A stretch of 59,007 nt of DNA, filler included, from Rhizaria sp. SCN 62-66 (GCA_001724265.1; 5 parts of 5 records of this genome joined end to end with filler, not necessarily neighbours in it); one strand, 5' to 3'; counted from the whole stretch's first letter, positions 1 through 58,765 are shown. Notes: generated from the letters alone by a model not told the origin. Numbers and translations: made by a program.

Positions 1-2
1 TC

Positions 3-980
3 AAGGCATCCCGTCTCAACAACCTCTCGCTCGAGTCCCCCATCCGCGAGGCGGCTGTGCTTCAGGTTGTCAACGTGGACCGCCACCCCAGCATTGTGAG
101 GTTTGTGCGTGCGGAACGCGTGTCGCAGACGTTCTACTGCGCGACCGAGTTTGTTGAGACGGGCGACTTGCTTGCCTTTATTACGTGCTCGGCCAAGAAG
201 ATGAGCATCGACATGATGCGCATGTTCCTCCCCATTTGCTACGCCTTAGACTACGCGCACAACAGGTTCTTCATCGCGCACCGGGACCTGAAGCCGGACA
301 ACATTCTCTACACGCCTAAGGGCGGCGTCAAGCTCGCCGACTTTGGCGTTGCGCGCGTCGTCGAGCCCGTCCTGGCCGCCGAGTCCCCCAAGAACGCCGC
401 GCTGCCGGGCTTCACCGAGCTCATGCGTCGCGTCGAAGATGGCAAGCGCGCCACCGAGGGCGCGGCGCTCCAGGACGGCAACGTGCTGACCGCTGCGCTC
501 CGCAAGTATCCGGCGTTGCCCGTGCCGGCCGAGGCGCTCGAACAGCTGCCGGTAGAGTAGCGCGGTGCCGCGCGGGTTGGCGACATGCTGAGCGCCAAAG
601 ACATCTCCGCGATGCTGCCCGACCTGAGCGCTGTGCATGTGCGGCCGATGAAGGGTGTCGTGGGCACGCTCAAATACATGGCACCCGAGGTGCTTAGGAA
701 CGAGCCATACAACCCGTTTGCAGCGGACATCTACTCGCTCGGCGTCACCTTCTTCATCATGGCCACCGGCTATGAGCCCTACAGTAGGGCCGAAATGCTC
801 GACCCTGCTTACAAACATTTGAGCAATCACGGTGCGCGTGGCCTAATTGCGGCCTACGATTTGGAGGGCACGGTACCCGAGGCCCTTGTTGAGCTGATCG
901 GGGACATGATGTCCTTTACCGAGAGCGCCCGTCCCTCGATCAAGCAGGTCATCGCGCGTCTGCATGGCATCGACGCGTAA
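3..980 (+). CDS. Ser/Thr protein kinase, 5'-truncated, with in-frame TAG at 558-560 inside a long activation-segment insert
   Basis: ORFs 57..560 and 585..980 share a frame and are separated only by TAG. HRDLKPDN and ADFG lie before the TAG; GTLKYMAPE, ADIYSLG and RPS lie after it. The frame is open from base 3 and ends at TAA. Confidence 0.9.
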
Positions 981-2010
981 TCGAAACTTTGCGGAATATG
1001 ATCAAATAGGACCAGTAAAGCCCAAATATCGGCGAATGTATTGTATGCTCACAAACATGCGTGTACGACGCCGTTGGTTGGGCATTTACTTCCTTGGCGT
1101 AATCCTATTATGGCGCTGCACCCAAATACCTTGTTTTACAAGGTGCTGGGCACGCGCGGTGCACACAACGACTTCAATGTTACTACTTGAAGTCACGGCT
1201 CCCCGCCTTTTCGGGGAGTTTATTCATGAATGTCGCCTTCACTGTGAGGAGACTGTTCATTGAATAAGCAGGCAAAAAAGGCAAAAAATGGGCGGAACAG
1301 ACCATTAGGACAACTGAAAAAGCCGCTCAGTTGTCATTGAGTGCAGACAGGCTTCATTATAGTTATGAGTCGTGTCACGCTCTCAGCGTAAATACTTGAC
1401 AAGAACAAAGCTACTCCTCGTATTATCCCGCATGGAAATGTGGGAGAAACACGCGTTTCATATCCTTCCGATAACCGCAAGAGCGGTTATGGCTCGATAA
1501 GAAACATGTTCTATGTCCTTTTTGAACCGTACATCAGTACAACTTACGATGAGACAACAGCCAACAAGCTGTTTCTCACGTGTTTCGTCAAAACCAACCA
1601 AAAATCAATGTCAATCAAAGATGAAGTTTAAGAATCATATTTGAATATTACGAAGTCACAACAAGACTCGTCAGTACAATTACCCAAAATTAAATATAAC
1701 CGAATACAACAGACCAAGATATTAGCCCAACTGACCCAAACACAATCGATACAATATCGCAGGAGTCAGTTCCAGTCGCCCATGGTTTAGTGAGATTACC
1801 CTTTGAATCCAGGAAACGTTAGTTTAGTCGCAGTTCGCTGCCACCCAAGTGTCCAGACAAAGCTGTCAGTAGACGCTCGTTCATAATGTCATATTTGTGC
1901 CGTAACTTCAATTAGATTAGAGACAAATTTAATGCTACAGAGTAATTATGTGCATAAGATACACTGATACAATTTGGTACCTGCTGGCCTTCACTTCTGA
2001 GCTCACAAAT

Positions 2011-5000
2011 ATGTCTTCATTCCTCCCTCGCATGTTTCGCGTCCCCAGCTTTCGAAGGGAGTCAGACCAGCTTCTGGACATCATGTCAACTCTGCCCACG
2101 CAAGGCACGCCTTGCAATCAGGCAGACGAAACTGATTCCACGGGTAATGCCGCGTTCTTGAACGTTGGACCACCATTGTCCTCCGCTCCTTCGCCTGCCC
2201 CGGTTTCGCACACCACTGTTCCACTGCCCGCAGTTGATTTTGTTCTCCCCAACGCCACTCTCTTTGCAAATGCGTTGCACCAGACTCTTGCCGAGCATAG
2301 CAAGGCCGAGAACAGGACCAACCCTGTCACCACTGCACCTCAGCTGCCGCCGCTGGCGCTGCCGTCCTTTGACGAACGCGCGGGGCTGTACTTGGCGCAC
2401 ATGCAAACTGCGGACCATCTCGAGATGCAAACGTCGTTACGTACAACACGCATTGCAGCAGAAGCCGCGTCCGGCGCTGCACTACCAAGTGAGCTTCTTC
2501 TGGCGCTGCAGCAATGCATTAGTCGCAGCGCTGCCGAAGCAAAGGCAGAGGAGACTGTCGCACCCGTTGGCGCTGGCGCAGTCAAAATGATCAGCGAAGA
2601 TGACTACTTTGCAGAGTCTAGTCTCGAGAACGGAGCTCAAGGCAAGAAGAAGTTTTCTGCCGCTTTGGCACCGTCACGCAGTGACGCGGATGTTCAAGCC
2701 ACCATTAACGCAGACAGTTTCAAGCACATGATTATGGCCTCTCGCGCCCACACAGATAGTCTGCATGCTCAATAGAACACGACGCAAGACACCAAGACTA
2801 AAGTTAACAAACCTGCTCTTGCAGCAGTTCCGGCCCACGTTAGCAAGAAGGCGAAGAAGGCTAGTCGTGCTAAGGCGCGGCTTGATGCTATCAAATCAAC
2901 CCCGAAAGATCATGGAGCTGCCCCGCTATGCCCAGTTACGCGCGTCCCGTTGCTGTCATGCCCGTCCCCTACCTGCGCCTGTGCATGGTTACCCTGCAAT
3001 GCGACTATCACCCTAACAGTCGCGGGTGATCATTCAACCATCTACGGCGCGCGCACGCGCGACACAGCGGCCACCACAGATCTCACTCCCAATGTGCAGA
3101 GCTTTCGTCGCGCAGAGAATGACGCTGACGGCAGTGACGTCGATGATGATGACTGCCTCGACACCAGGAGCAACTACAGCGGTGGCTGGGCTTGCACCCC
3201 AGGTTTGGGGATTGACGTCAACGCGGCTGCGCGCCGTGGCGCGTTCCCCGGTGCCGGTGAGTCGGGTCCGCCGTCCCGCAGTGCCACGCCCGTCGCCGGC
3301 GGAGTGTCGCGGTCCGCAGCCGCTTCGCCCGCGCCCGCGTTGCGTCGCGCCATGATGAACCTTCCAGAGCCTGCGGCAGCGCCCGCACCGGCGCCGCAGG
3401 GGCCGTCAATGGCAAAACAGTTTTCTTTACTGTCGGCTGCTGCTGCTGTTAACGCGCGGAAGACACCGCCTGCCTCCGCAACGCCCAAAATAACGCCTTT
3501 GCAGACGCCAACGCCTGTTTTGCCGCGGTCGCCGTCGATGGCCGAGAAGCTCGCCCTAATGTCCAAGAACAGCAAGCCTTCCACTCCCGTTGTGGCAACG
3601 CCGCCGCTGTCGCAGAAGCCTAAAGAGACGTTCCCCGAGTTGTCGTCCATTGTATCGTCGAAGAGCGGCGCTGCAAGCCCGGCGGGCCGCTCGGTTCCCT
3701 CATCGCCTACACTGCCGCCTCGCTCGTATACAACCACTCCAACCGGACAGGTTACGCGTGTCTCTGCGACTACGACCAAGACGGCGGTTGCACAGCCGGC
3801 GTTTCCCACGCTCGCAAGTGCAGCGCCTGCGATTCCGCGGGCAACGACGCCGGTTGCTCGGCCTGGTTTGGCTGCTGTGTCGATGCCCGCGCCGACTGCA
3901 ATCTCGCTGCCGTTACCTGTCGCCGTTTCTACGCCTGCTCCTGTCGCTGTGTCGATGCCTGCGCCTGTCGCCGTCTCTAAGGGAGCGCCCGTTGCCGTAT
4001 CTAAGACCTCAGCTGCTGCACTGCTTACCAGTACGTCTTGCCCGCCGTCGCCTCGCACCATGTCCCCCGCTCCTGCTGCTGCTCTGAAGCCAATGACACC
4101 AGTGAAGGATGTGACACTGACGCCAACTACGCTCCGCCTTTCTCGCGACAGTTTCAGGCGGAGCGATCTCCCGATCGACCTGATTGGCGCGTCGTCAGAG
4201 CCTCTGGCCGGCCGCGTTGTCTGGCTCTCGCTGCCGCTTGCCACTGCTGGAGGCGGCTGGGAAGAGACAATCTCGCGGGTCTACGCTGGCAATAAGGATC
4301 CCAGCGCGGTTGACTCTTGCGAACGCGCTCTTGACGCAGTCACTTCACTGGCGCTGCCCGCAATGCCGCCGCCGTACCCTGCGGTCACTGGTTCGCGCCC
4401 CACTGTCAACGCATTCTGGAGTCGCCTTTAGCGGAGTGCGCACTGCAACAACATGAGCGCCAGTGGCGACTCGGCCTCTATCGTTTCTGTAAACGCGGAC
4501 GCTGACGCCGTGGCTTGGACCTCCACCGACGCCTACGCTGCCATCGCTGCCAGTCCTGCAACGGAGACTTCTCCCAATCTACCTCCTGCGCAGAGCGCGA
4601 ACGGTGCACCACGTTTGTCGGCGCAGTGCGGCTGCAGCACGGCGAGCTGCTCGTGGAACCCCTTTGCACAGCCGCAGACTCAGAACAGCGGCTGCAGCAC
4701 TGTGTTGCACTCTGCAGGCATTTGTGCGCCGCTTAAGTTACCGCCGCAGTATGCGTGTCCGCCGCCGCTTCCGTGGGCGCCGCTTGAAGGCACTATTACC
4801 AATTCCAAGGTTGACAACGGCACTGGCAAGCTTACGCTTACGATTGCCGTTACTGCCCCGAATGCATACCTCCGCGCGCTCAGCGTTGCGGCATCAAAGA
4901 AGCCGACATCTACGACCAAGAATGAACTTACGCAGCTCAGTCTTGCCCGCGCATCTTTTGTTGGACATAATATCAACAGTACTGTCACTATGCCAGACGG

Positions 5001-8000
5001 TGCTACGCCGGTTACAACGTGTTCTGCGTTGTGCGCTCACTGCGCGCACCTGTCTGTAATGTGGACTGCGGCGATGGGCACTACAATGGCCGCGCCTTTG
5101 GTTCCTGGTGACAAGGCTGCAATTGAAGCGATTAAGTCTGCTAATGCAGACGTCCCCTTTGCTCCGTGGACGCTAGGCTCTGGGCTTTTGGTTGAGTTTG
5201 GTGCGTCTACCAGTGTTTCCAATCGTGTTCGCGCCGCGCTGAGCGCGCTTCAGCCCACTGGTGATAACACCGTTGAGACTCTTGGTCGCGGCAATGCCGC
5301 GGCAGGAGATAGCAAGAAGCACCAGAGCGGCGACGTTGCGAGTGCAGTGGCGGCAACTCTGGCAAGCATTAGTGCAACTACCGAGGTTGGCGGTCCAGCA
5401 ACAGACTTGGCTCTCGACGTTGCGCTTGCCACTTCTAGCCACAGTCTTGCTGCGCCAGTGTCGCCACATGATAAAACGCCGTTCCACGCTGCAATTGAGT
5501 CTTGGAGTGAGAAATCTAACTCCCAGTCCGACAAGAAAAGCAAGAACAACAACATGTTTTTCAATGCGTTTACCGCAATTCTTTCCGCTCTCGCTGGTTT
5601 TACGCCTTTGGCGCAGATATCGGAGCAGGATAACAACGAGACCGTGCTGAGCGTAATTGAGCTGGTCCAACAGCCGTGGCTATGCATCTGGCCTGTGGCG
5701 CGCCGTGCTGCGTTTAAGCTGCTGCTTGAGCCTGCGCTGCGCACGGTCTTGCCGCCGCTGTTGCGTGCAGTTGCAGAGCGTCTGCGTGGGATTGAAACTA
5801 CAGCTGGAAATGCGGCATCGATCAGCACAGACATGCTGTCGCTTTTGCCCGCCGACGTGGCGACTGTAGGCAAGGCTGCTGCGCTGGCTGTAATGCATGC
5901 TCTTACAGAAGCTACGCTTAAGTGCCTTAAGGGCGGTGTCATCGGCCGCACTGTGGTGACAGTCCCACTTAGTCTCAGCACATTGCCCTCAGTGCGCAGC
6001 GGTGCCAAGAGCATCAACAAGACTTATAACGACGTGTTCTCTTTCTCTTTTACGTTGTCGGGGCTTGGGACGCTAATGCGCGCGACCGCAGCCGTTTGTA
6101 CGCCCAACAGCACTGCAAACTGTGCTGATGACATGGGCGTGTTTTTTGCGCTGCTGCGGTGCGTATTCCCCCCGCAAATGCAGCTTACTCTCGACGGATC
6201 AAGCACTAACTGGACTAGTATCTTTTTGGGCATTAACTCGCCGATGGGTCTGAGCAAATCTGGCATGCAAGCGCCCGACTTTGCGCTGTCTAAGGCGCTT
6301 TACAGCTCACTTGTTGAGCTTCAGCGCGAGTCGGGCACTTCAGTGCCGCCTCCGCCCGCGCTTGCTCCCTCAGCCACCGCAATTGCTTTAGAAGACAACA
6401 GTAATGAGAACACGATTGCGAAGGTGACCGCTAAGGCAATGACTGACATGTGGATTCCTTATTTTAACGCTCTCGGTCTCAACCCTTCGCAGCGCACCGC
6501 AGTGAGCAACGTTCTCGCTGAGCCGCAGCTTACAGCCGCCTCGCTTTCCGCTGCCGTGGAAGGCGTAACTGACGATGAAACTGCGGATCTCATGCGCGCG
6601 CCCTCGCTTAACGTAATTCAAGGCCCGCCCGGCACTGGCAAAACGCAGACTATCTCGGCCGCAGTGTGGCTTTGGATCCGCGCCGCACGTCTGCGCGCAC
6701 CTGTCTGCGGTCCCGATGGGCGTGCACGTGTTGCGCCCACGCGCGTGCTTATCTCGGCGTATTCGAACGCTGCGGTTGATCTGCTTACGGACCGCGTGCG
6801 CATTGTTGCCGCCAAGGCCGACGCTGCAGTGCGTGAGGAGATGGCGGCACACGCGACCAAGGCGCTTGCGGCAGTCGCAGAGGTGGGGGCTACGGATGCT
6901 ACTGGTGGGGCTCATGGCGCTGGCACGCCACTGTCGCTGGTGTTTCCTTCTCCAGAGTTGGAGCTGGCGCCACTGCGTGTAGTGCGCGTTGGCAAGCGGT
7001 TGAACAAGTACAATGCCGTGTACCCGTGGCCCTTCTGGCTCCGCACTTCATCTGTAATCACCGACGCACACACGCTCACTGGCGGGCTTCCGGGCAAGAA
7101 CGCGCTCGGATTTGTGACTTTGCGGCGTGTGGCAGATCTCTGCGAGAAGTACTTGCTAAACGAGGCTCGAGCGAGCAAGAATGCGCACAAATTTTTGAAC
7201 TCAGCGCTGCATGTGTATACCAAGAACGGTGTGTACAAATCTGCGCAACACGTGCTTTCGCCGGCCATAATTGAGGCGCATCTTTGGGAGACATCTCGTG
7301 CGGCAACAACACAAGGTGAGCTTGCACTGTTGTCGACCTCTATCGAGCTGCAGGTTATCAATTGTCACGACATTGGCGCGGAGTACCGTGCAGTGCTGCT
7401 GACAATCCACTGCGCGCGCAAGGCTGCACAAGAGGCTGTCAAGGCTGCCGTGGCCGGCAAAGAGAACTATGCTTTACTGCGTAACACTCTGAAAAGCATG
7501 AACATGAAGGGTGGAGAGAGGATGCTTGCGAATCACTTGTTAGACATTTATGGCTATACTGAGAACAATGGGCCGTGGAGCACAGGTGACCCAGCAATGT
7601 TTCACCATTGGGACGCCGTAAGCCAAGCCGTGTTCACCCCTTCCGACTGGTTGCCGCTACCTGTCATTGCTGCGGTGCTAGGTCAGCTCAGCGTCAGCTT
7701 TGGCCGCAACTCCGCCTAGTCCGCAGCGCCTGTCGGCTCAACATTTGTGCGCCTGCCTCAAATCCCCTGCGATGATTGGCAGGGTCTTCCCAAAAACGTT
7801 TCGAGTCGTTTCGTGTGGGCCTTGGTACTGTTCCAGCTTGTTGACAATATTCAACACAACTTAGTCCTCTGCGGCAAAGTTTTCGACTACACCAAGTTAC
7901 AAAAAGCACTTCTGCAGTCAGCCGATATCATTTCCGCAACATGTGTTGGCAGTACACAGCCAAACATCCGTCGAGGCCGCCCTGCGGCACGTCAGGCTGC

Positions 8001-10557
8001 TCTTAACGCCGCTTGCAATACGCAACAACTTGCGATTCTTGCAGCGCAAGAGCCTGTTCCGCGCAGTGTTGCCGCCCAAGCGCAGCTCGCGCGGCGCAAG
8101 GCTGCGCTGTCACTCGCGCAGGACCTTTGTGGAAGCGAGAGCGGTGATGCTGACAACTTTGACGATGGAAACGCGAGTTTCGATGAGCGTAGCGACGATG
8201 ACAACAGTGACTCGGACAGCGATAGGAGCGAGACAAAAATTCCACATCAGCACGACTTTTCGCTTGTGATTGTTGACGAAGCGTCTCAGGCGCCGGAGCG
8301 CGCGGCGCTGCTGCCGCTTGCCACAATGGCCAAAGTAAAGCGCATGAATAAGCACGCACTGCCGCGCGCAGTGTTAAAGCTCGAAGTCAAGGCGGCGCGG
8401 GACGCGCTTCAAACCGCGCAGAAGAAGTTGGATGATGCCGAAAAGCCTGCAGACTCTACAAGTGCTGTTCCTCAAAGCGCCGAGGTTGACTTGGCTGAAC
8501 AGCGTTTAAACAATGCTGTTGACAAGCTTGCTGCTTACATTAACAGTGTTGTTGCTGAAGCTAAAGCCGAGCGTAACGCTATGGAAAATGAGAGCGATGA
8601 AACCGTTGTTGAGAGCGCTGACTTCAAGCCTGAACGTGCCGAAAAGTGCGCTGATACGGTGCCTGACACGGGTGATATTACTGCAGATGTTCTGATTGTT
8701 ACAGGTTCCGAGTGTGATAATTTATCTGAAGGCAGCCAATGCGATGATGCCGCTGGCACCGGCAGAGTGGATGGCTCTGACTACGACGATGAAGACGATT
8801 ACGATGACGACGAAGAGAACAAAGACAGTGAGTACTCAGACGCGTCTGACGAGTCCGAGTTCGAGTTTTTTCCGATGGGCATGGAGGATTACACGGATGC
8901 CGGTCACCACCGCGACGGCAGCGAATATGACAGCGACAGCGACTATAACGACGACTACTACGACGATCTCGATGACAACGAAGATTATGACGCAGCCATG
9001 CTTAACGAAGAGGAAGTCGCAGAGCTGGCAACATTTGTCTCTGTTACTGAAGATGCCGACAAACTTCTTGACGCAGAGCCCAAAGACATCGTGCGTTACG
9101 ACCGAATTGTCGCAACTGAGGAGGGCGGACTTGCCAGCGACGAGTCGCTGTTTACGGATCCCCAGACGATTGCAAAGCTCTGCATGTGGGGCGCGCCGGG
9201 TGTTGGCGCCACAACGCGCGCTGCGTTTGTCGGTGATCACTGCCAGCTGCCGCCCATGGCGGGCGCGGGCTCCGGGGAAGTTGGTATGTTGCTGGGTACG
9301 GACTCGCCGATGTTTGCCCGTCTTGCATGTGCGCCTGCTATGCTTGCCAAGGGCAAAGCTCGGTTGGAGAGCAAGAACGCACGCACTGGCACCGCTACCG
9401 CAACGTCGGGGAGCAGCCTGCGTCTGTTTGTGCCGACTGGTTGCATGCTGCTGCAGCAGCACCGCATGCACTCGACTCTTGCACAGTGGCCGTCGAAGAC
9501 GTTCTACAGCGGCGCACTGACCACGCCGCACTTCATTGACCCGCAGCGCCCGCCTGTGCGTGGCTTTGTCTGGCCCTCTGCTATCCCCGCACCGGCTGCA
9601 TTGCTGCCGATTGTGCCGCCGCACGGGCACGTTCCTGCTCTGCTGATCGACACAAGCGGCGATTTCAGGCTGCCGAAGACGGCGGCGACTGTGGCATTGC
9701 GTGACTGGCTGAGTAAAGATGCTAATGTCATCACAATTAGTGGCGGCACTTACCGGAGCGCTGCGGTTCAGCATCGCGGCAGCTGGGTCAACACACCCGA
9801 GGCGGCACTGGCTGTATTGCTTTCGACACACGCTGTTCTGACGCAAAAGCGCGCGCTGCCGCGCAGTACAGACGCTTCTGTTGCTGTGGACCGGCTCAAG
9901 TCACTCTTGAGCCGCGGCTCAAAGCGCGCTGTGAATAAGTGCAACGCCAATGCGACTGTTGAGGTTGATGATCTGCCCCTAAGTGTCGGCATTGTCACCC
10001 CGTACGGACAGCAGCGTAATGTCGTGCAGCAAATGCTGCGTATGCTCAACATGAACGATGAGATGCGCACTGCGATGGAACAAGCGCTCGCCGGTACCGC
10101 GGAGACTGACTGTGCGCTTGACAAGGCGATTGAGGTCAACTCAGTCGATGGTTACCAAGGCCATGAGAAGGACTTGATGATCATGTCGCTTGTGCGCTCC
10201 AGGCAGCCCACCATCGGCTTCGTTAAGGACCGCCGTCGCATGAACGTACGTCAACATATCTTGACTGATTGGAATATTTCAACATCTATAATTAATTGTG
10301 CATTTTATCAACTTGGTTTATTGCACGACTCACATGCATTCTTTTTCTTCTTTCTGTCGAACTGATTTTAGGTGGGGCTCACACGTGCGCGCCGCGGGCT
10401 CATCATCCTGTGCGACTGCTCTACGTTTGCGCCAAGGCGCAACTCAGAGGAAGAGTGCGTTATCGACCGCACTGGTGAGTGGTCATCATATGTTCGGTAT
10501 ATGCGGGCGCAGGGCTTAGTGTTCCCCGCCGAAGCCCTCTACACTCTTTTACAGTGA
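2011..10557 (+). CDS. UPF1/DNA2/NAM7-like superfamily 1 helicase, about 2800 aa; exons 2011-10245 and 10372-10557; in-frame TAG at 2773, 4429 and 7717
   Basis: Four same-frame ORFs are separated only by single TAGs. Motifs in order: LNPSQ, IQGPPGTGKT, AYSNAAVD, VVRVG, [TAG 7717], ADIISATCVG, VIVDEASQ, VGDHCQLPP, HRMH, VTPYGQQ, SVDGYQGHEKD, and RRMN|VGLTRAR rebuilt by splicing. Ends at TGA. Inclusion of the N-terminal low-complexity part (2011-4452) depends on TAG being sense. Confidence 0.85.
10246..10371 (+). other. Spliceosomal intron (126 nt, GTACGT...TTTTAG) within helicase motif VI
   Basis: AT-rich with a pyrimidine tract; removal restores RRMNVGLTRAR. Confidence 0.93.
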
Positions 10558-12425: not shown

Positions 12426-13041
12426 GGTGAGGCGCTTGCGGAGGTGCTCGTTGATCGAGTTGCGCTTGAAGCAGCGGCGGGCACGGGAGTGGACCATGCC
12501 GATGAACTCCTTCTCGGTGAGGTCGATCATCTTCTCGGCCTCGACACCGCGGAAGAAGTACTGACGGAAAGGCTTCTTGGACTCAGACTGTAGTGGCAGC
12601 AACGGAAAGCAAAGCAAGAGAGAACAAATCAAGCACGAGGGCGTTTAATGACGTGGCATTGGAGGCGGGGGGCATCAAAGCGCAAGCGGACGGACGGGAG
12701 AATCGAGAGTGAGAGCGAGCACAGTCGAGTAGTGGCGGGAAGGGAAACAGAAAAGAGAAACGAAATGGGTAAGAGAGGGGTCGGGGGAAGGCCAGGAGAA
12801 CAGTGGGCGGAAGGATAATGTCTCATAATACACGGTGGCGGGTGCTATGCGCTGAAATGCGCCAAGCGGGGCGTGTGCGGTCGGTGCAAAAGGTCGGCAG
12901 AGGGGCGCTCCGGTTAGAGCGGTCTCGAGCGACTTTGCCAACGTCCTGTCCTCGGCCAGATAAGCACAGTAGAAAATGTAGACATGATAGAAAGCGAGAA
13001 TAGTGGGCGGCCAAGCACCAAAACAAGCGGCGACGTACCAT
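12426..13041 (-). CDS. RPS15: 40S ribosomal protein S15 (uS19), 3'-truncated by gap; ATG-only first coding exon 13041-13039, intron 13038-12588
   Basis: Splicing ATG|GTACGT...CTACAG|TCT gives MSESKKPFRQYFFRGVEAEKMIDL...HSRARRCFKR, matching the eukaryotic S15 N-terminal pattern (FRxFxYRGV...RARR). Confidence 0.85.
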
Positions 13042-16500: not shown

Positions 16501-17789
16501 CAAGACTCTCCTCAGCGCTGGCGTTGACTTCGCCGTTGGCGCTTGCACTGGCGAGGTGCGCAGTGGCGGCCGCGTCGGTCAGCGCGTTCGCAAGCGCCAG
16601 GGCGGAGAGATTGCTGTTTGCGAACACGGGGTCCACGGGCAACGCGAGCGCAGACACGGCACCCGCCGCCACAGTATGGAAAAGACTGGCCCTCTCCGCA
16701 CCGGCGACGTGGGGGAAAAGCGCGCCGGGGGCCGCGGCGGGGCGCAGCGCGTCCAGCGACAACGCGGCGGCCGACAGGGAGGCCAGCGCAGCAAGCGTAC
16801 CGGGCGGCTGGGTTACGCCGGGCACAGTCAACGGCTCCCACGCGACGCGGGCGGTGTCGCTGGTGACGGCCGACAGATGGGGCAAGAAGGCCGGGGCGGC
16901 GGGGTGCGCGATCAACCCGAACGCGTCGATCTGGGCAATCAAGTCGGTCGCGTCGAGGCTGGCGTAGACCGTGGCGGGCACGCACGGAGTGGACAAAGTG
17001 TTGACGGCCAGCTCGGCTCTCGCGCGGGCGGCAGCGAGCGCAGACTGGAGAGCGTCTGCCGTGGAAAGAAGCAATGCATCACTCTCGTTGGGGATCAGGG
17101 GCTTTCCAAGCGCGGCGGCAGCGACGGCGGCTTCGGAGCGTGCGGCGAGGCCGGCATGAGACGTGGGGGAGTTGGAGCCGCCGTTACTGCTGTCCCCCGT
17201 GGTGTCGCTAGTGGAGTTGCTGCTGTTGCTGCTGTCGTGCAATGGAAGGGCAGTGCGGGCGCGCGCGTCGTCGGCGACCTTGACGGCGTCCTGCCAGATG
17301 CGCGTAAGCTCGTCGGACTGCACCTGCAGCGCACGGAGCTTGGCGATCTCTTCCTCGTCAATCTGCTTAATAAGACTCGACTTGCGGAGTGTGAGAGCGG
17401 CGATGGCGCGGTCGATTGTGGCCGTCGTTTCACTCCGCGCAGACTGTGCAGAGGACTGGACGGACTGCATGGAGGAGATGACGGACTCGGCGCACTCGGA
17501 GAGCGAGGCTTCGAGGCGGGAGAGCTCGGTGAGCTGGAGAGAGACGCGGTGACGGACTTCGCGTGCCAGCGAACGCACCTCCATCTCGTGCAGGAACTCG
17601 GACTCTGCGCCATCTACGCAAAGAGTGAAACACAATTGAAACAGAATGAGTAATGAGATCGGCATGTCGCGTTTGATACAATTCAGGTTTCACTGCGATT
17701 GGGGTTCGCGTGTCGCGTTGTCGTTATCAGGACGTACACTTGAAGTTGATGTTCTTCAGGGACGAGGTGATGGTGCTGATCGAGGTCAT
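13594..17789 (-). CDS. Coiled-coil + interrupted FN3 + Kelch-repeat protein, about 1300 aa; exons 17789-17738, 17613-14063, 13917-13594
   Basis: Kelch repeats (VxGGxDG...ExYxP...W...PM...R). FN3 strands RVAWEP / MYELIW / FTLTALQPAQQYLVFLRA. Two GT-AG introns (GTACGT..GTAG and GTATGT..TTAG) keep the frame. Ends at TAA. Confidence 0.85.
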
Positions 17790-24638: not shown

Positions 24639-25679
24639 TCACCACGAGGCCTCCTGCCCGTTGACGGTGAACATCCCCTGCAGCCGCTCGGCGACCTCAG
24701 CGAGCGCCTTGCGCGGGACGACCATGACGAGGTGCGACGAGGGCAGCTTGCCGACGCCGGGCCAAGGCACCGCGCGCATGGCGGGGAAGCGACGCGAATA
24801 CACGGCCTTCTGCGCCAGATACTCCTCCTCGAACTTAACAAACCACAGCCGCGCCGTGTCCACGGGCCCCTCGACCGCGGCTGCGGCGGCGCGCGCAGCC
24901 TTCTTCTCCGCCTTCTTGCTCTTTCCGGCGCCGCCGTTGGCGCTGGCGGACGAGGAGGCGAGGCTGCCGTTGTCAGCGACTTCGCAGCAGCGCGCGAGGA
25001 TGACAACCTGGTCGACGTCCCAGTCCGTGCCCGCCTTGGCGCCGCCGGTCTTGGCCTCGCGGCGCGCGTGGTCGAGGTCCTTAGCGAGCTCGGCGTGCAG
25101 CACGGGCACGACCTCGAGCGGCAGATTCAGCATGCGGTCCTGCAGCAGCAGCGCCGTGCGCGGGGAATCCCACACGGCCGTCATGCGCGCGCGCGCGGCG
25201 TCAGAGCCCATGTTCTCGAGGATGAACTCCTTCAGCTGCGCCAGGCAGCGCGCCTTGCGGTGCGCGCCCAGCTGCAGCAGCGTGATGAAGCCAAGGGGGC
25301 CCGACTCGACATCGTCCTCGGCCTTGACCGTGGTGCCCACCGCGGCCTGCCCCGCGATCAGGTCGGCCAGCCCGTTGACGTCGAGCGCGTCGCCCGCGCC
25401 GCCGTCCACGCCGTCGCCGTCAATGTAGCTGCGCAGGAACGCCTTGACGGCGTGGTAGTCGCCCTCGCAGGGGTCGAAGAAGCCGAAGCTGGCCTCGACG
25501 GCGGCGTCGTCGTCCTCCTTGTCCTCGTCGTCCACGGCCTCGGCCGGCACAGGCTTGCCCTGCTTCTTCGCCAGCGCGCGCGCGGCCTGCTTGCGCTTGC
25601 GCTCGGCGGCGCGGTGGCGCGGGGCCGCCTCGGCCGAGAGGTCGATAAGCTCCTCCAGGTCGAGGTTCTCGTCGTCAAT

Positions 25680-25712
<33 letters not shown>

Positions 25713-48670: not shown

Positions 48671-48671
48671 A

Positions 48672-48771: not shown

Positions 48772-50853
48772 GGCGGCGGCGGCGACGGCCGAGGGCGAGA
48801 GCAGGGGGTGAAGCTGCGGCGCGGGGCGCGCGTCCCAAGACCAGCGGCCGACGACGCCGCAGTGCGCGAGCAGCACGCACAGCGCGGACCGCGCCGCGGC
48901 CGCTGCGACGGGCTCGCCGGTCAGCGCCAGCACCGCGCCACCGCCGGGGCCCGTCGCGGTCGCGGCCGTGCTCGCGGCGGCCGCGACGTTGGCGTGCGCG
49001 TTGTGCGCGCCGCCTGACGACGCCGAGCCCGTCGCGGAGCCAGCGGCGGCGGGCCCCGTGGTCGCAGCAGCGGTTGGTGTAGCGGCGGTCACATTGAGCA
49101 CGTCGAATAGCCCCGCGCGCAGGCGCTGGAGCAGCACCGTGGCGGCGGGATCGAAGCCCAGCGCCGCGCAGCCCGGCCCGTCAAGAGCGCCCTGCATCAC
49201 CGCCAGCGCGGGCTTCGGCACCGCCGCCAGCGCCGCGTCCATCACGGACTCGATTCCGCTGCTGCTCACCGTCGCTGCGGAAGCCGCTGTGGCAGTTTGC
49301 ACCGCGCTCGCAGCGGCGGCGGCGGCGCCACGGCCGGTCGCAGCGCTCGCTGTGGCGCCAGCGGGCAGCGCGCCGGGGAGCCCCGCACCAGCCACGCTGC
49401 TGCTGCTGCTGCTCGCGTTGCGGTTGCCGCCGCCGCCGCCGCGGGTGGGCGCGGGCGCGGCGACGCCACCGGCGGCAATGACCGCGACAAGCGGCGAGGC
49501 CTCGTGGGGCGCGTGCGCGGCCGAGAAGAGCAGCGGGTCGCCCGTGGCCAACGCGGCCGCGGCCGTCGCGCACAGCGCATCAGCGGGCGCCGACGCCAGC
49601 GCCAGCAGGAGCGGGTCCGTCGGCAGCCCCGGCGTCCCCGGCGCAGTGGCAGACGCCGCAGTGGCGGACGACGCGGCGTGGTCTGCGAGGTCGTGGAGCA
49701 GGGACTCGAGTCCGCGCGCGGCGTCGCGCTCCACGTGGGCCAGCACGCGCACTGCAGGCTCCAGCGGCGCTGCGGCGGCCACAGCAGCGGACTGTGCGCG
49801 CAGAGCTGATGCCACGCGCCGCAGCAGCGCTGAGGCCGTCGCGGACGCGGCCGCCGCGGCGGGCGACGGGGCCGCAGCGGACGATGATGACAGCGAAGCT
49901 GACACTGACGCTGAGGCGGACGCAGAGGACGCGAGCTGCCGTGACGACGACGCCAAAGACGAGGCTGACGCAGCCGGGGCGGATGAGGCAGACGCCTGGT
50001 CCTGCTGCTGCTGCAGCTGCAGCTGCTGCTGTTGGCCGAGCGCGGGCGCCGCGACGGGCGCGCGCGCGGCGTCGGCGTCGTGCGCAAGCGCGCAGGCAAG
50101 CGAGAGCGCGCACGCGGCCGCCCAGACCGGATCCGTGTGCGCGGGCGGGAGGCGTTCGAGCGCGGCGCACACGCGCTGCAGCGACGGCAGCGCGAGCGCG
50201 AAGAGACCCGGGCGCAGCAGCGGCCGCACTGCGCGCGCGTGCACCAGCGAGGCGTTGTACACGAGCTCGGGGAACCGCGCGGCCGCCGCGGCCGGAGCGT
50301 CGCCGGCAGCGTCGCCACCCAGCGAGGCGGGAAACTTCGCGGTCGCGGCCGCGGCCACGGGCACGGGCTGCGGCCCCAACGGCGAGGGCAGGCTGAGCAC
50401 CGACACGGGCGCAGCGGCGGCGGCGGCGACGGCGGCAGGCTGCGCGGGCGCGAGCAGCGCGGCGTAGGCGGGCGCGTCCGCAATGTCAAGCGCGGACATG
50501 ACGAGGCTAACGGCCTCGAGCAGCTGCGCGGGCGCCCGCACCAGCGGCTGCGGGTCTTCGTCCGCGGCCGCCAGCGCAGTCACCGCGCCAGCTACGGCAG
50601 CGGCAGACGCGATGGCCACGTCCGCCTCGCACAAGAACGCACGCGCGCGCAGCGCGGACTAGGTGGGGAACGGCGGCAGCGTTGATAGGGTGGAAATCGC
50701 CTTCTTGGCGAGGACAGTGTGGGAGACGCGGCAGGCAGCCTCAGCCAAGGTCAAAACGGCCTCGTGGGCGTTGAGGCTGCCGGCGTCGAGAGAGCTTTGA
50801 AGCACTGACCACTGGGCATCCAGCGCGGGCCACTCCGCCTGTGGGGATTGCAT
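48772..50853 (-). CDS. Hypothetical Ala-rich helical protein, 3'-truncated by gap; in-frame TAG at 50661-50659
   Basis: ORFs 50659..50913 and 48724..50634 share a frame and read LPPFPT*SALRARAFLCEADV. First in-frame ATG is at 50853. No family recognised. Confidence 0.65.
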
Positions 50854-52851
50854 TGTGTGTGGTTGTATCTTGATCGTCAAGTCCTGTACCTGTGTAGCTC
50901 CGAAAAGTGGCAAACCTAAGAGTCGAAAGAAACTGTTTGAAAGAGGGAACTTAAACTAGGCATAGTGAGGTCATTTAAAGGCCTGTAGAAATAGAATACA
51001 TGTGTAATTGAAATTTCAATCTATGAAACTCGGCTATTTGCGAAAAAGTTACAAAGACGGATTCTGCGTCCTTCTATTTTCAAATGCAGAACGCGTAGTA
51101 ACGACTACGCAACAACAGTGAGCTACCACGGTCGAAGAGTGAAGTGACATCTAAAAAAAGTTTACCATGATGCCTAGGGTTCGTTGTAGTGCCTGATACT
51201 GTTGAGAGCACTTTTATTAAGGCTGATAATGCATATTTCAGTAACCGTGTATCTGGTGTGACTATTGGTGCGCCGCTGCCAGGCTCCGCATTTGCTCTTT
51301 GGTTTTTCGTGACGAAACTTGCCACTTGTCTTTAGTCGGACGTATACGCGTGAGCCATTGACAAATTGGCGTTGTAATAGTGAGAAGGTGGAATATATGA
51401 CTGTATATATCCTTATTGTGAGCTGATTTGGTGTTGGTACACGCCTTTCGTTACGTAGAGGTCGATCTGCTGTTGTCGAGTCACGAAGACAGTCTGACAT
51501 GTCGGACTCGTCCGAAACCGTCGCTTGACCAGCACCCATCAATACTTCGGATGCCCGACAACAGCCGCCGCTGTCTAATGGGCGTGTGTGGTCTTTTGAC
51601 GTCTTGTCTAAGTCATCTAGCTCTGCTGCTGCGCCGGCCACGTCGCCAGATGGTGGGTGATGCTGCAGTCGAGTGTTGAACAATGCGACTGAATCTGCGG
51701 TTATGTGTCGATGGTGGTGGAGATTAACGGGCCCCAACATTTGTTTATGCACTAGCTCGATATCTTGTTGCTGTTGGCAAAGAATGTGGTTATCTCCGAG
51801 AAGACGCGGCCGCGGTGACACGCCACGACAGTTACATGGTTGGTCAGCTCCTGCCCGTCACTTCGCACTTGCTCTCGCTCTTGCTGTCGTTAACTCAAAC
51901 GGCGGTATCACAACAACGCGGAGCATCGCGATTGTTCCGTTGACCCCAGTGCAAAACGCAATCATCGTGGGCCACAAAATGTGGGAATTACATGTCGCCA
52001 TGGCAGGTCTTCGGCATGGCAGGTGTCCGGACTGTTTTTATTCCTACCAACTCAAGTTTATGTACCTTTTTCATACTATCGTGCAACAACATATTCATGT
52101 ATGGTATCGCGTGTTTGTGTCTGTGAACACTGCTCTGCTTTGGCGGTTGTGGTGGACTTCACGACTGTAACTAAGTGTTAGTTGATTATGGTCGGATACT
52201 ATTTGAGCCAATAAACCACTCAATGTGAACATTTAGAGGCAATGTCCAGTCGAATGTAAAATATAGCATTTTTTGGATAGATTTACGTTGCTGGAAACGT
52301 CATCTCGCGCATTTCTGTCTTGAAAATCGGTCGTTTTGTGTGGATGAGTCGGTCGAGGACAACGATCTCGACAATCCACAAAAAAGCCTGGCCCCAGTCA
52401 ACCAAACAGCCATATCCAAGCAATCGTATTTTGGGTCGCAATGTCCGTGTCTAGACGACTCGTGTTTATTTTTGTAATTAAACTGGTGTTTTTGAGACAT
52501 TTAGTACTTGATGGACTCTATGTCGGTTTATACTATGCCTTATTCGCATTGGCGTGCTGCAGTGGTGCCCACACTCACGTCAGTGTCTATGCTTGTACTT
52601 AAAAACAGGATTGCACTGAATGACATCATATCGCTACCATTGCGCGTCCTCGGGTCTGTTCTATTGCATCAATTACATTTGACATGCTCACTTGTTTTGC
52701 ACTCATGTGTTCTTCCTTCATGGTGCCCCTACAGGTCGACCGCAGTCCAACCTGACGCATCCACCAAAAGCTAGCAGCGAACTAACCGTCGGATAGCCAC
52801 ATTATCTCACGCTTTTCTGCGGCATTGTGCACACCAAGCTTCGGAGCAACC

Positions 52852-55176
52852 ATGGAAGTTTGCGCCACAACCCATCAGACACATCAAACGCGGTCCACGC
52901 CGCGTGAATCGTCGTCGGCCGGTGCGCTCGGAGTCACGCCACGCTCGCTGCCGCTGATTGCACCGCTGCCGGGCGCGTCCGTATCGCTGATGCCCGTGCC
53001 CGTGTCCGCGACCCCCTCACTGCAGCTTGTTATTGGGTCCGCGCGCGGTTCCACCACCATTGGTCGCATGGAGCCCCGCCTGCCAGTGGCAGCGGCGTCA
53101 GTGGAGACCCTGGTCGCCTCCCCCGACCTCGCGCCTTTCGCGCCCGCCGCCGCCGCCGTCACCGCCAGCACCAGCGCTGTCAGCACCGTGAGCTCGGTGG
53201 GCACCCGCTCCTCGACCTCTGTGCGCTTTGCGCCGAGCGCCCAGCTGACGCCCGTCGCTGCGGGGCCCGCGTCGTCGCTGGCCCTGGGTCTGACCGCCTT
53301 CCACCGCGTCCCCGTGTCGGCCGCGCCCAGCGCCGTGGACAGCGCGGCGGCCGAGCTCGGCGGCGCGTGGCGGCCGTCGCTGTCACTTGCGCCCCCGTCG
53401 GCGGCAAGCTCACTCACGGGTCAGATGCAGCTCGCCACGGGAATCCCCCTCTCGCTATGCCCTCCGACGGCCGCCACCAGCGCCAGCAGCGTCAGCAGCA
53501 TCGGCTGCGCCGCGGGCCCCCCCGCCAGCAACAACACCGCTGGCGGCGGACGCCGTGAGTCGCTGGGCTTGCTGGGAATGTCGCTGGGCCGCGCGGGCCA
53601 CGCCAGTATTCTCTCTCCGTCGCTGATGGCGCCGCCGCAGGCGGCGCAGCTGTCCACCGCGGACGCCGGGTTCGGGCTCGGGGCCGGGGTCGGGGCCAGC
53701 GCCGCCGCCGCGGTTGCCAACGCCGCCGCTGCCGCCGCAGCCGCGTTCGCCAGCTCAACCGCGCTGGGCGTCTCGAGCCGTCTGCGGCCAGAGGTCCCCG
53801 ACTCTGCGGCAGCGGGTGGCGCCGATCCCACCGGCCGCACGGCCGCGCTGCGCCGGGGTGGCTCTCTGGGCAGCGCCTTCGGTGGCCCTCTTGGCGGGTC
53901 TCTCGGTGGCGCTTTGGGCAGCCCGCTTGGTAGCGCGCTGACCGGCTCTCCGCTGGGGCAAACTGTCGCCGGCGTTGCCCTAACGGCCATCACAGAGGCC
54001 GCCGCAACCGCAGCCGCCGCGGTTAATGCGGCGGCCGCGGCCGGGGTCGGGGCCGGGCACGACGGCGACGCGCACGACGGCGAAAGCGACCATCTTTACG
54101 TCTACGGCCACGGCTACGGTTACGGCCACGGCCAAGGCCGCCATCACGGTCACACTCACAATCCCGGTTTGGGCGCCCTGCTGCCGTCCCCGTAGCAGCC
54201 CGGCGCGGGGGCACACCAGCAGGCGCGCGGGAAGCGCGGCGTGTCGGGCAAGAAGATTGCGCCCAGCACGGCCCAGATTAAGGGCCACAGCGCCAACGGC
54301 GCCAAGTTGGGGCGGCCGCCTACTGACGACTCGCGGTATCTGGCATCGCTGCTGCTCACGCGTCTCAAGGTTGGCACGGGCAGCACGCAGTGGGGGCCAG
54401 CCAACGTCGATGCGATGTCGCGCAACTGCCCGTCGTACGGCCGGTCCTCGGTGATGGAGCGTGCGACCATGATCAAGCATGGCGTCGACGGTCCGCCCAC
54501 GGGCGGCGCCAAAGCGGGACGCAAAACGGACCCGCTGACGGCTAAGATCGCGAGTGAGGCTGAGAGGATGCTCGAGGCCGAGTACCCCCACGGACTTCAC
54601 GGCGACTCGTGCACTCTCGTCGACGCCACCGCCAAGAAGAACGCTAGCAAGGGCGAGGCTGGCGGCGCGGGCTCGGCGGCCGCGGCCGCGGGCGCGAGCG
54701 CGGATCCGGCCGCTGCAGGCGACAAAGAGGTGCTCAACACAGCAGAGTACGTCACGGAGGCGGACAAAGTGTCCGCCTCAGGTGACGCGATTAACTACTT
54801 GCAGGGCACGTACTCTGGTATTTACGAGCGCATTGACGACGCTCGCATCTGCGGCCAGGTGCCATTGCTTGCAACGCTTTTCCGGAGCTACCGGCGACGC
54901 TTTTTTTCCGGCGACGTCAATGGCGATGGCAACGGCTCTGCGAGCGGCGAGGACAGCGACGAGCTGGCGGCTGCGGGCGCCGGCGCGGCGTCGGGCCGTA
55001 TGACGCCGGCGCAGTTCAGCGCGCGCAAGAAGGCGCTGGCCAAGGAAGGGTCGGTCACAAAGCGCGCCAAGAAGGCCGCCAACGCGGCCGCCGTCGCCGC
55101 CGGGAGGGACGCGTACCGCGGCCTCGGCACCGATAGCGACGAAGATGACGGCGACAAAAGTGATGACGATGAGTGA
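52852..55176 (+). CDS. Hypothetical low-complexity protein; in-frame TAG at 54193-54195
   Basis: Same-frame ORFs 52825..54195 and 54241..55176 are joined through GC-rich coding-like sequence LLPSP*QPGAGAHQQ. Ends at TGA followed by AT-rich sequence. Confidence 0.7.
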
Positions 55177-56158
55177 ATCATACATGTGACGTGAGACGAG
55201 GACACACACCACTCGTGAACGCTGTGATGATGATTGGAAGAGGAATTTATATCGTAAAATTGCGCCTTTCAACGAGGTGGCGTGCACAATTTGAATCTTC
55301 GCCGTGTTGCGTATCATTAACCCTTTTTTTAAGACATGCCTTTATTGGTGGTTCTGTTTCAGATAGAACCTTAATGGGATGCCACGTGCGAATGGCCAGC
55401 GACACTTGTTTCGACACCATTAGATTACTAGTTACGCGGTGATACGAATTGTGCGGTGAGCGTTGTTGTCAAGTTGCTGTCGACTGCGTTGCAGCTTTAT
55501 ATCTACATATATATATCCCGGGTGCTTTTGACTCCTTAGCACCTATCATACTGACACTTGGAGTACATTGGACAAAGTATCTAAAGAACCACTGCGTTAT
55601 GTGAAGAGCAACTGAACTATGTTTGCCCACATGATGCCAATACGTACGGATAGAATATTATCAACATTAACAGTGACTCTTTCACGCTATTTTATAAATA
55701 CATCATCGAAAAACGTGATAAAAAGTGTGTTTGTGCAGTAGCTCAAGTAGCACACCCGCCTCCGACCTGTAGCGACACACAACACTTCACCATTATATTG
55801 GTCACGTCACTGGTCAATCCAGAGAATGGCCCCGTGGTGGAGCTCAGTCCTCATAAAATCAGTAGCTCTAATTGAGTGGGGACCGCGCCAAAGTGAATGT
55901 GTACAATGCCAACAATACTTTTTGTTTATTTTAATTTGATTTTATTCTCTAAGTACGCTCAATTACTCGTGTATCCCCGAGATCCATTGATTAAACTTTC
56001 ATGCTTTGAATCGCCAGAAAGGAGACAGACGTGTGATCAGTTATCCGTATTAACACGATGTTTTACAATGTATGTGTTCGGCATCAACACTTATTAATGT
56101 TCGTTTTGTATGTATATCCCTGATTATTCTTTCTTCAGAGCTTCTCCGATCAAGATCT

Positions 56159-56556
56159 ATGTCTTGGGCATGGAGCAACGGCTCCGCGCCTCCAGAAGCT
56201 CATCAAAACTCTTGCGATACGTGTGGGATTCCAATCTCAATCAACAGTCGCTGCATGGTATGCCTGCTTCAAAGCCTTGATGTTAGTGGTCAAGAATTTT
56301 ATGAAAACTGGTCTTATGTCGCGAACGGTCCTCCTCCGCCAGCTGATGAAGAGCAGCATACAGCATCAGCAGAGCACGATGACAACGCCTCCCAAGCAGT
56401 CCCGCAAATGAATTTCGTTGTCGATCATACCGCAGTCGACGAGCCTCGGGACAAAAACACATTCCGGGATGACAACCAGCACAGTGGGGACAACGAACGC
56501 GGATACGAGCGCGAATACGAGCGGGGGCACGAGCGCGGGCACGAGCGCGGGCACGA

Positions 56557-56601
<45 letters not shown>

Positions 56602-58765
56602 TGGGCGCGGGCGCGGACACAGGCGTGGCGGCGGTGGCCACAATCCAGCCGCGCGCGTTGCTAACAATGCCAACAACGTAGTCGAGGATTCTGAGGCTGT
56701 AGCACAGCTGCTTTCGCAGTATTTTCCTCAAACAGAAGTGACCCTGTCCGTCGCAGAACCGGTTCCTGACCCGATCGCAGTGGCAGTCGCGGCGGCAGCA
56801 GATCTGCAGACTGCGTCGGACGATAGCGCAGCACTGTTAGCGCTAAACCCTACACCAGACTCGCTTCCGTTTGCAGTGGCAGGCCTGTCTAAGGGGTTCC
56901 GGCGCCGCGATAGTTACCTGCGGCCGCTCGCTGCACAAGCCGTCGAAGAGCTCACGTACGCCAGCGCTGGCGTGCTGCCGCTCGCAACCCTGCCCAGAGT
57001 CGGTCTGTGCGCTCTCGTTGCGCTGGAAGTGCGCGAGGACGCGGACATGTACGATCGCTGGCGCAAAAAGAAGACCGGGGACGTGCTGATCGCGATGCTG
57101 GCGGGCGGCTGCCGAGAGCCCAGTGATCCCACGTCGCTGTACACGGCGCTGCGCAAGTTCAACGCGGAGACGGTAGACCTGCTGTCGCCGCACGTGCGCC
57201 GCGAAACTGGGCTTATGTCGGGTGGCGCGGCGTTTGCTGCGTCTGACGCGGTGCGCATGGCCGTGATGCGCGAGTACGTCCGCGCGAAGGGCGCTCCTAG
57301 ACCTGCTGCAGGGGGTAGCGCAGACGGTGCTGACGCTACTATCCCAACTACGGCGACCACAGACTGTGGCGACCGCGACGGCGCAGGCGATCAGAGTGAC
57401 CAGGAGAGCGGCAGCGAACGTGAAGGTGAGGGGGAGAGCGAGAGCGAGAGCGAGAGTGAAGAAGGCTGTGAAGGCTATTCCCGAGACGTAGAGGTTGAGT
57501 GTGCGGATGGAGGCAAGTCTAACTCTAAAAAAGGTCTGACGGCCGCTGCCGCGCAATCGCAAGATACGCCCCTTGTGTTGCGCGTAAGGACGCAGACGCA
57601 GTGGTTGACCCACATTGACAAGACACTGCCTCCTGAGCACGCAATGCTCACTATGGTCGACGCTGCTGACGCCCCTGTACGGCCCTTCTCTCCATATGCG
57701 TGGAGCTCGCGCGAGTTAAGCGCGGCAAACGCGCGCGCCGCGGCTGCCGCAGCGGGTCACGCTGTGGTGTGGCTCAAAGACATGAAGATGCTTGCGCACG
57801 TGATCGACATTGACCGCGGCTTTTCACCAGCTCCTTTTGCACCTGCGCTTGCTGGGGACGGCGCCGTTGAGGGCATTTACGGCGCCGCAAATGCAGCGGG
57901 AATTGACCCGGCCCTTGTGCCCGCGCTTGTCCCAGCCTTTGCGCAAATGGCGGCGGAGGCAACAGTGAGCGATTTGGGTCGGGCACTGGCGCGCGCGCGT
58001 GCAGAGGGTACAACGCTATCTCAAGATGCTGTTCCTGCAACTGTGTGGCCAGTGTGCGTGTCTGCGCAGGCACGTACACCAACTACCTGGCATCCTGTGA
58101 CGCCGCTTCCTCCGGGGCCGCAGCTGCGAACAGTGCTCACAAAAGCTCTGGCAGTGCAGCAGCGTGAAGCACCGCCACTGTCTGCGGTTCTCCGCGGGCT
58201 TCCTGTGCTTCACCGCGTTCTCCGCACACACGCAATGGCATCGCAGCAGCTGTTTCAAGACGTGGCAGATAACCCTTTTTGGGCTGTCAAGGGCCGGCCT
58301 GTGGCCGTGCGCTGGGTGCCTGTTGCCGCGTTGCTGGGTACCAGTGAGTGCATTTGCACCGCGGATAATATTGCGGGGCTCCCGCGTGTAAGTGCGCCGC
58401 CCGAAAGCAAACTGGTCATGTCCGATGCCGATGCAGTATTGCATCTTTGTCGCGATGGCAGGTATGAGGCAATGATCAATGATGCTGAGAATCACACCCT
58501 CTCGCAGACCAATGATGACCGCGCGCCTGCGGGCGAGGCGGATAACGCTGCCGTTAATAACGCACCTTTGGTCATTGAAAATGAGACCCAACAATTGATG
58601 GTGAAGGATGTGGACGGAAACGTACTGCGGCTGTCAACGTTGTTGCTGCGACAGTTGGCGCAGCGCGAGATGCGGGCTTACTTAATCGATCGCCTGCGCG
58701 CCGTGTCGCCAGATCTAGTGGTAGACGATAGCCCGGACACGCCCAGCCGGCCACAATAGTTCTAA
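56159..58765 (+). CDS. Hypothetical protein with NMD3-like N-terminal C4 zinc finger, RG repeats and a degenerate Nudix box; ends CAA TAG TTC TAA
   Basis: CDTCGIPISINSRCMVCLLQSLDVS; (ERGH)n(RG)n; SAGVLP...GGCREPSDPTSLYTALRKFNAET. If TAG is sense, the stop is TAA at 58763-58765. Confidence 0.7.
56495..56620 (+). repeat. Coding repeats (GAGCGCGGGCAC)n grading into (CGCGGG)n, encoding ERGH/RG
   Basis: Directly visible 12-mer and 6-mer arrays. Confidence 0.85.

Follow-up and report, generated by a model that had tools for sequence, protein, structure and literature searches.

We analysed a 59,007-nt stretch of DNA (here called the window) from the assembly Rhizaria sp. SCN 62-66 (GCA_001724265.1), in which the triplet TAG recurs inside otherwise open protein-coding genes and where UAG is very probably a sense codon, with UAA and UGA as the terminators. 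The window consists of five metagenome contigs (1-12325, 12426-24079, 24180-34498, 34599-48671, and 48772-59007) joined by spacers composed of N, TTAATTAATTAA, and N at 12326-12425, 24080-24179, 34499-34598, and 48672-48771, and several of its genes are truncated at contig ends. The guanine plus cytosine (GC) content of the individual contigs is 0.55-0.61 and the intergenic gaps are AT-rich. Pfam searches revealed a eukaryotic set of genes that includes a protein kinase, an Upf1-like helicase, a Kelch/fn3 protein, a GNPTAB-like protein with Stealth and LNR domains (G6), BCCIP, and a giant protein with Sushi, TIG, and ephrin-receptor-like domains. Because this gene set is accompanied by three GT-AG introns, we regard the DNA as that of the nucleus of an intron-poor eukaryote, and the best explanation for all five contigs is that they belong to one nuclear genome, that of an uncultured eukaryote that is rich in GC and has few introns. 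An earlier reading of the window from its sequence alone (the sequence-only reading) had described the genetic code as a nuclear one, and the spliceosomal introns together with the cytosolic uS19, BCCIP, and GNPTAB-like genes agree with this.

The gene models, introns, and in-frame TAG triplets are collected in Table 1, and each TAG is named below by its first coordinate. Each of the three introns is located in the 3' half of its gene. Removal of the intron from the helicase gene restores helicase motif VI, with RRMN before the junction and VGLTRARRGLIIL after it, and leads to the TGA at 10555. The spliced coding sequence (CDS) of the Kelch gene has 1308 codons and 0 stops, and in G8 removal of the intron turns two open reading frames (ORFs) into one CDS. 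The introns of the helicase and Kelch genes hold in-frame TAA or TGA, and the reading frames run into these introns and close there.

Table 1. Gene models, introns, and in-frame TAG triplets of the window. Flank scores are same-frame coding scores upstream / downstream of the TAG.
Feature	Position	Strand	Description
G1, protein kinase	3..980	+	Pkinase E 2.3e-38; end TAA 978; 5' part on contig L001
TAG in G1	558..560	+	Activation-segment insert; flank scores 49.3 / 36.9
G2, Upf1-like superfamily 1 (SF1) helicase, ~2,800 aa	1948..10557	+	AAA_11, AAA_12; end TGA 10555
TAG in G2	2773..2775	+	N-terminal linker; flank scores 29.6 / 5.1 (downstream weak)
TAG in G2	4429..4431	+	Coding frame persists downstream
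TAG in G2	7717..7719	+	Within AAA_11; downstream score weak, 8.7
Intron of G2	10246..10371	+	126 nt; GC 0.32; GTACGT..TTTTAG
uS19 (RPS15) fragment	12426..12599	-	N-terminal 58 residues of the cytosolic protein; truncated by contig end; top PDB match E 1.4e-06
G4, coiled-coil/fn3/Kelch	13594..17665	-	Kelch_1 E 1.5e-44; end TAA 13594; no TAG
Intron of G4	13918..14062	-	145 nt; GC 0.35; GTATGT..TTCTTAG
G5, multi-pass membrane protein	18483..20537	-	ORF, coding score 316.6; no Pfam family; end TAA 18483
TAG in G5	20178..20180	-	N-terminal domain; flank scores 50.7 / 39.0, other five frames negative; 564 open codons after
G7, BCCIP homologue	24639..26207	-	BCCIP E 9.2e-36; end TGA 24639; no TAG
G8	27098..31274	+	Spliced 1346 codons, 0 stops; end TGA 31272; no TAG
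Intron of G8	28949..29084	+	136 nt; GC 0.30; GTACAC..TTGAAG
G9, coiled-coil membrane protein	31757..33838	-	ORF and coding scores; end TGA 31757
TAG in G9	33071..33073	-	Flank scores 29.4 / 29.2; 437 open codons to TGA 31757
TAG in G9	33665..33667	-	Near start of gene; 300-nt flank scores -4.4 / -11.3; weakest case
G10, Sushi/EGF/TIG/ephrin-receptor-like membrane protein, ~3,400 codons	38302..48601	-	Pfam; end TGA 38302; no TAG
G11, Ala-rich		-	Truncated by contig end; frame score 181.9 vs 79.0 for antisense ORF
TAG in G11	50659..50661	-	Flank scores 17.5 (64 codons) and 35.9
G12, no known family	52825..55176	+	Scores 108.6 / 126.0 either side of TAG; end TGA 55174
TAG in G12	54193..54195	+	Flank scores 28.8 / 25.4; 326 open codons to TGA 55174
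G13	56072..58765	+	ORF 895/897 aa; end TAG 58757 or TAA 58763
TAG in G13	58757..58759	+	End of gene, reads TAG TTC TAA; same-frame score beyond -29.8

The sequence-only reading had claimed that TAG was the only stop codon to interrupt roughly 14,000 codons of gene models, and models that we built independently contain 10 in-frame TAG, 0 TAA, and 0 TGA triplets in 14,002 codons. An additional 105 codons in the last exon of the Kelch gene and 2 codons in G8 are also free of stops. The ten TAG triplets (which read CTA on the plus strand when the gene is on the minus strand) and the ten terminators that it had listed all sit at the coordinates it gave, and the TAGs are distributed, as it had stated, over seven genes, four of the five contigs, and both strands. 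UAG occurs at ~0.7 per 1000 codons in the gene models; as a comparison, the rates at which stops are encountered off frame in the DNA of the window are 6.1 (TAG), 5.75 (TAA), and 14.9 (TGA) per 1000 codons. The ten gene ends that are unambiguous consist of four TAA and six TGA, with no TAG among them. The TAG-only pattern is confined to coding sequence, since the non-coding region 5' of the kinase gene on contig L001 (see below) holds all three stops, with 4 TAA, 3 TGA, and 3 TAG in 229 same-frame codons. There was no correlation between TAG density and GC at third codon positions (GC3) across 12 genes (Spearman 0.07, p 0.82).

To follow the coding frame across these sites we used a coding score, calculated as codon log-odds trained on nine uninterrupted ORFs, and compared the 300-nt flanks. 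After 8 of the 10 TAGs the same-frame score remains above zero, weakly so at 2773 and 7717. By contrast, it is negative beyond the end of all 15 tabulated ORFs that are closed by TAA or TGA (-27.5 to -95.9). This drop in score backs the gene ends at 978, 13594, 18483, 24639, 31272, 31757, 38302, and 55174. The end at 10555 is backed by removal of the helicase intron, and the ORF that ends at 24275, at the edge of a contig, is just 32 codons long (GC3 0.97, score 8.8). At TAG 33665 the frame in use is the best of the six on both sides, with scores of 1.0 upstream and 15.7 downstream. The frames that remain open beyond the TAGs are 139-1095 codons long, and, given that a codon off frame is a stop with probability 0.0268, runs of such lengths have chance values between 0.023 and 1e-13. 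A cruder control, the number of raw residues in ORFs of at least 500 aa, gave 13,164 with the standard code, 18,257 with TAG as sense, 13,479 with TAA as sense, and 20,315 with TGA as sense. This control does not discriminate between codes because TGA has a 2.5-fold higher frequency off frame and its removal lengthens spurious frames.

When the ORF pieces on either side of a TAG were scanned separately against Pfam, two of the sites were found to divide a single domain. TAG 558 splits one Pkinase domain, where the upstream piece matches profile positions 43-150 and the downstream piece matches 154-258 in the same frame. TAG 7717 splits one AAA_11 domain in a similar manner; here the upstream piece covers positions 3-73, and the downstream piece, also in frame, covers 210-237 and is followed by AAA_12. 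An exhaustive, profile-free search with residues 801-2000 of the helicase yielded 11 matches in total, and these include relatives that can be aligned across all three TAGs of this gene. Protein P0123 (1478 aa) is 49% identical to the helicase. Its residues 1-182, within one ORF, match the sequence before and after TAG 2773, the linker being unalignable at the site itself, and it aligns gap-free over TAG 4429 with Q at the site and a conserved flank, TVNAFWSR. A second relative, P0124, carries G at this site, and a third, P0127, spans TAG 7717 with A at the position. From these alignments, the stretches around TAG 2773, 4429, and 7717 read as plain coding sequence in the relatives. Two other matches, P0125 (40 aa, ending at TAG 7717) and P0126 (850 aa, beginning after it), are public fragments of the window's own helicase, which is split in this way because gene callers that use the standard code stop at TAG 7717. 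As a separate observation, the end of P0123 and the start of P0127 lie a few tens of residues apart, just upstream of the equivalent of TAG 7717. If these two proteins are pieces of one gene of one relative, this relative, too, may carry an in-frame stop there.

The part of the window from 401 to 10400 is present in 12 public runs from seven studies of bioreactors, wastewater, activated sludge, and microbial fuel cells, and we compared contigs of four of these runs with the first contig of the window. The DNA runs X1-X4 contain 0.82-0.98 of the words sampled. There were no differences at TAG 2773, 4429, and 7717 in contigs of runs X2 and X4, which come from two separate studies dated 2017 and 2025 (TAG 2773 in X2 record 2; TAG 4429 in X2 record 4 and X4 record 14; TAG 7717 in X2 record 6 and X4 record 16). 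A contig from the Joint Genome Institute (JGI), L001 (1687 nt), is identical over 749 nt including TAG 558 and supplies the N-terminus of the kinase. X4 record 10 represents an allele with 27 differences in 442 nt, and among the 25 differences listed none is at 558-560. Base-call error, which the sequence-only reading had named as a possible source of the TAGs, is contradicted by these comparisons. The TAGs are not base-call errors, since those at 2773, 4429, and 7717 are identical in X2 and X4 and no difference is listed at 558 in the divergent allele. We also observed in X2 and X4 a second allele or strain at 429-1279 (the 3' half of the kinase gene and the spacer after it), which diverges by ~6% and carries small indels beyond the TAA. 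Two contigs from a polyA RNA-Seq library, X5, are exact across a TAG: record 17 (354-600) across TAG 558 and record 19 (2581-3071) across TAG 2773. Together, the domains that continue across two TAGs, the relatives that align across three, the identity of TAGs between studies, the RNA contigs over two TAGs, and the lack of in-frame TAA and TGA support the idea of a code in which UAG is sense and UAA and UGA are stops.

Several points weigh against a sense UAG. The sample is small (59 kb and about 13 genes), and the window contains neither an eRF1 gene nor, as judged with ARAGORN, any tRNA gene. No conserved alignment column contains one of the 10 TAGs, and aligned relatives are available for 3 of the 10 sites. 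In addition, the TAG-only pattern is less improbable by chance than the sequence-only reading had supposed. The pattern is real; its improbability is smaller than an argument from (1/3)^9 would give, as TAG already accounts for ~0.60 of one-step nonsense changes with this GC3-rich codon usage and the probability that all 9-10 sites are TAG under random nonsense is then ~0.006-0.016. Nor is the assembly flawless, having one frame change in G10 and another in G6. These last points would favour the TAGs being true premature stops, found in pseudogenes, nonsense alleles, or assembly errors, with TAG prevailing as the commonest one-step nonsense codon. We think this very unlikely. It would leave 7 of ~13 genes disabled, yet frames of up to 1095 codons are open behind the TAGs, the coding scores are undiminished downstream, and there is no in-frame TAA or TGA. 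The identity of TAG 2773, 4429, and 7717 in runs from two other studies and the lack of a listed difference at TAG 558 in the ~6% divergent allele also speak against this explanation.

The RNA data carry limits of their own that count on the same side. They cover 2 of the 10 TAG sites and derive from a library in which there may be carried-over DNA. All eight RNA-library pieces listed are in coding sequence, where coding sequence makes up 78% of that contig, and the X5 library, when inspected for splicing of the intron at 10246-10371, has no cover over it. The sequence-only reading had noted that TAGs could be spliced or edited out of transcripts. This has been answered in part: the TAGs at 558 and 2773 are unchanged in the RNA contigs, and these are the two sites covered. 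Spliceosomal introns do exist in this genome, and it is conceivable that the TAGs lie in short, unrecognised introns or are changed by RNA editing before translation. We consider this the least probable of the explanations. Introns of the window have a GC content of 0.30-0.35 with GT..AG ends versus a local GC of 0.49-0.79 around the TAGs, P0123 aligns without a gap across TAG 4429, and the RNA contigs are exact across TAG 558 and 2773. The TAGs are not within introns, since the introns are AT-rich, those of G2 and G4 containing in-frame TAA or TGA, and the TAGs sit in GC-rich coding sequence.

A final point against a uniformly sense UAG comes from the end of G13. TTC TAA and then non-coding sequence come directly after TAG 58757, so this triplet may be either a sense codon or a true terminator. 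Some codes are known to contain codons that are sense or stop depending on context or position, as in Condylostoma, in the karyorelicts, and, for UAA, in Blastocrithidia. By analogy, UAG in this organism could be ambiguous, with efficient readthrough inside genes and termination at some gene ends that is determined by position or context. The rarity of the codon would fit with this, as would the base that follows it, which is C at four sites, A at three, T at three, and G at none. A C after the stop codon is the leakiest context for readthrough. We nonetheless judge ambiguity to be unlikely. TAG is absent from the 10 unambiguous gene ends, the TAGs occur as far as ~2,500 codons from the end of a gene (2773 in the helicase gene), and ten sites are too few for a context rule. 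UAG as sense is the reading that we favour. By analogy with known UAG-only codes, it would be read by a tRNA with a CUA anticodon or by a very efficient near-cognate tRNA, and eRF1 would be without release activity at UAG.

Glutamine is the most likely amino acid to be inserted at UAG, a choice to which we give slightly less than even weight. It is favoured because Q is found at one aligned site (4429) and because exchange between CAG and TAG is the commonest route among known reassignments. Against it, the residues at alignable sites do not agree: they are Q or G at 4429 and A at 7717, with the linker at 2773 being unalignable. A likelihood based on the context of neighbouring residues did not separate the candidates, with S, P, L, V, A, T, Q, and G all within about 4 bits. 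If UAG does encode glutamine, it makes up 10 of the 426 glutamine codons, or ~2.3%. UAG is rare and occurs solely where conservation is poor, which is the pattern to be expected if a codon was reassigned not long ago or is little used. This raises the idea, which we offer tentatively, that UAG was captured independently, and late in evolutionary terms, in a lineage so far known only from wastewater and bioreactor metagenomes, where an early stage of reassignment separating UAG from UAA would be seen. With such a young capture, UAG may still be ambiguous at gene ends.

To place the host we used the Stealth/LNR region of G6, for which there were 356 homologues. Those with names are from animals, green algae, oomycetes, and Percolomonas and are 36-54% identical; P0003, which is encoded on a 151-kb contig, is 73% identical by BLASTP. 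A quick maximum-likelihood tree of the GNPTAB-like proteins groups the query with the four environmental proteins P0003-P0006 (Shimodaira-Hasegawa-like approximate likelihood ratio test, SH-aLRT, 100) and sets it apart from every named group (Metazoa, Chlorophyta, Oomycota, and Heterolobosea). This tree has 74 rows and leaves out matches ranked beyond P0070 unless they were named, as well as matched spans of <150 or >500 residues. A search with the BCCIP homologue found, besides itself, P0002 at 53% identity as the sole relative. A homologue search with G5 gave 0 matches among 8000 scored candidates. Atlas searches returned no taxon, and the uS19 fragment is of insufficient length for placement. 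No telomere repeat was detected at any of the 10 contig ends, and no Rfam matches were obtained across the window. Scans for further DNA of the organism also gave two contigs that we rejected: L002, from metagenome contigs, encodes an unrelated kinase, and L003, the only result from genome contigs, is a Myxococcota contig. Scans of viral contigs gave no further DNA of the organism or its relatives.

Some features of the window stand apart from the TAGs. At the 3' side of the giant gene G10, a 3.7-kb region at 34599-38301 has a GC content of 0.40-0.43 and no long ORF. Within G10 itself the frame shifts by 1 nt at ~44873-44945 on the minus strand, inside a calcium-binding EGF-like motif that begins DIDECN and continues in the other frame as NNCTKLHGARSQCINTYGGYIC. 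Possible causes are an indel introduced in assembly, a genuine frameshift, and programmed frameshifting. The frame change in the Stealth/LNR gene is on the plus strand at ~23270-23331, after EVYDMLLA, and no AT-rich intron is visible there. Its closest relative, P0003, ends at the same point, and P0004 and P0005 continue. A possible explanation is a GC-rich intron common to P0003 and G6.

For a long time it was believed that a nuclear code could not give UAG and UAA different meanings; to our knowledge, such codes are now recognised in only a handful of lineages. The sequence-only reading called such codes rare exceptions. They are indeed of a rare kind, and the claim was somewhat overstated, as its list omits Scotinosphaera, Protocruzia, and several phyllopharyngean ciliates. 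The passages of PMC5304391 on Iotanema spirale (Fornicata) describe a nuclear code with UAG as glutamine and UAA and UGA as stops. As described there, it resembles the window in that UAG alone is reassigned and is a minor codon, at ~8% of glutamine codons versus ~2.3% here if UAG is glutamine. It differs in being an anaerobic metamonad known from its transcriptome, with UAA as the preferred stop compared to UGA (6 of 10) in the window (PMC5304391). The corresponding passages on Rhizarian sp. exLh (Sainouroidea) report UAG as leucine, with 384 UAG codons in 71 genes (PMC5304391). There, too, UAG is the sole in-frame stop codon, with UAA (56) and UGA (15) as terminators. However, in exLh UAG is the commonest leucine codon in proteasome genes and is on conserved leucine columns (PMC5304391). 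Abundant UAG on conserved leucine columns was not found in the window, where there are 10 UAG in 14,002 codons and none in a conserved column, the informative site points to glutamine, and no site is aligned with leucine.

Other UAG-only changes are given in the relevant part of PMC11687900: serine in the green alga Scotinosphaera, glutamine in Protocruzia, and, among phyllopharyngean ciliates, leucine once and glutamine twice. By that account these cases resemble the present one in that UAG is decoupled from UAA, in their repeated origins, and in being found in metagenome-assembled genomes (PMC11687900). The phyllopharyngeans differ in having contigs capped by CCCCAAA and UGA as the least-used stop (PMC11687900), whereas in the window no contig end has such a repeat and UGA is the commonest stop. 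In Condylostoma, the karyorelicts, and Blastocrithidia, a stop codon is likewise read as sense inside genes; two or three stops are affected in those organisms, whereas the window has 0 in-frame TAA or TGA in 14,002 codons. The window is very probably another instance of a kind already published, UAG-only reassignment having been described in several lineages. Our searches of full-text literature, with supplementary tables outside their scope, did not turn up any wastewater or activated-sludge eukaryote described as reading UAG as sense.

This case would be of real interest for studies of how the genetic code evolves. Each independent UAG-only case provides a test of how release-factor specificity and suppressor tRNAs separate UAG from UAA. 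Because gene callers that use the standard code split genes containing TAG, as was seen with P0125 and P0126, annotation of this lineage's eukaryotic bins will be wrong for as long as the code has not been set, and these genes are already split in public protein collections. If our interpretation is correct, a recurrent, uncultured wastewater lineage with a low UAG load would be well suited to the study of early codon capture.

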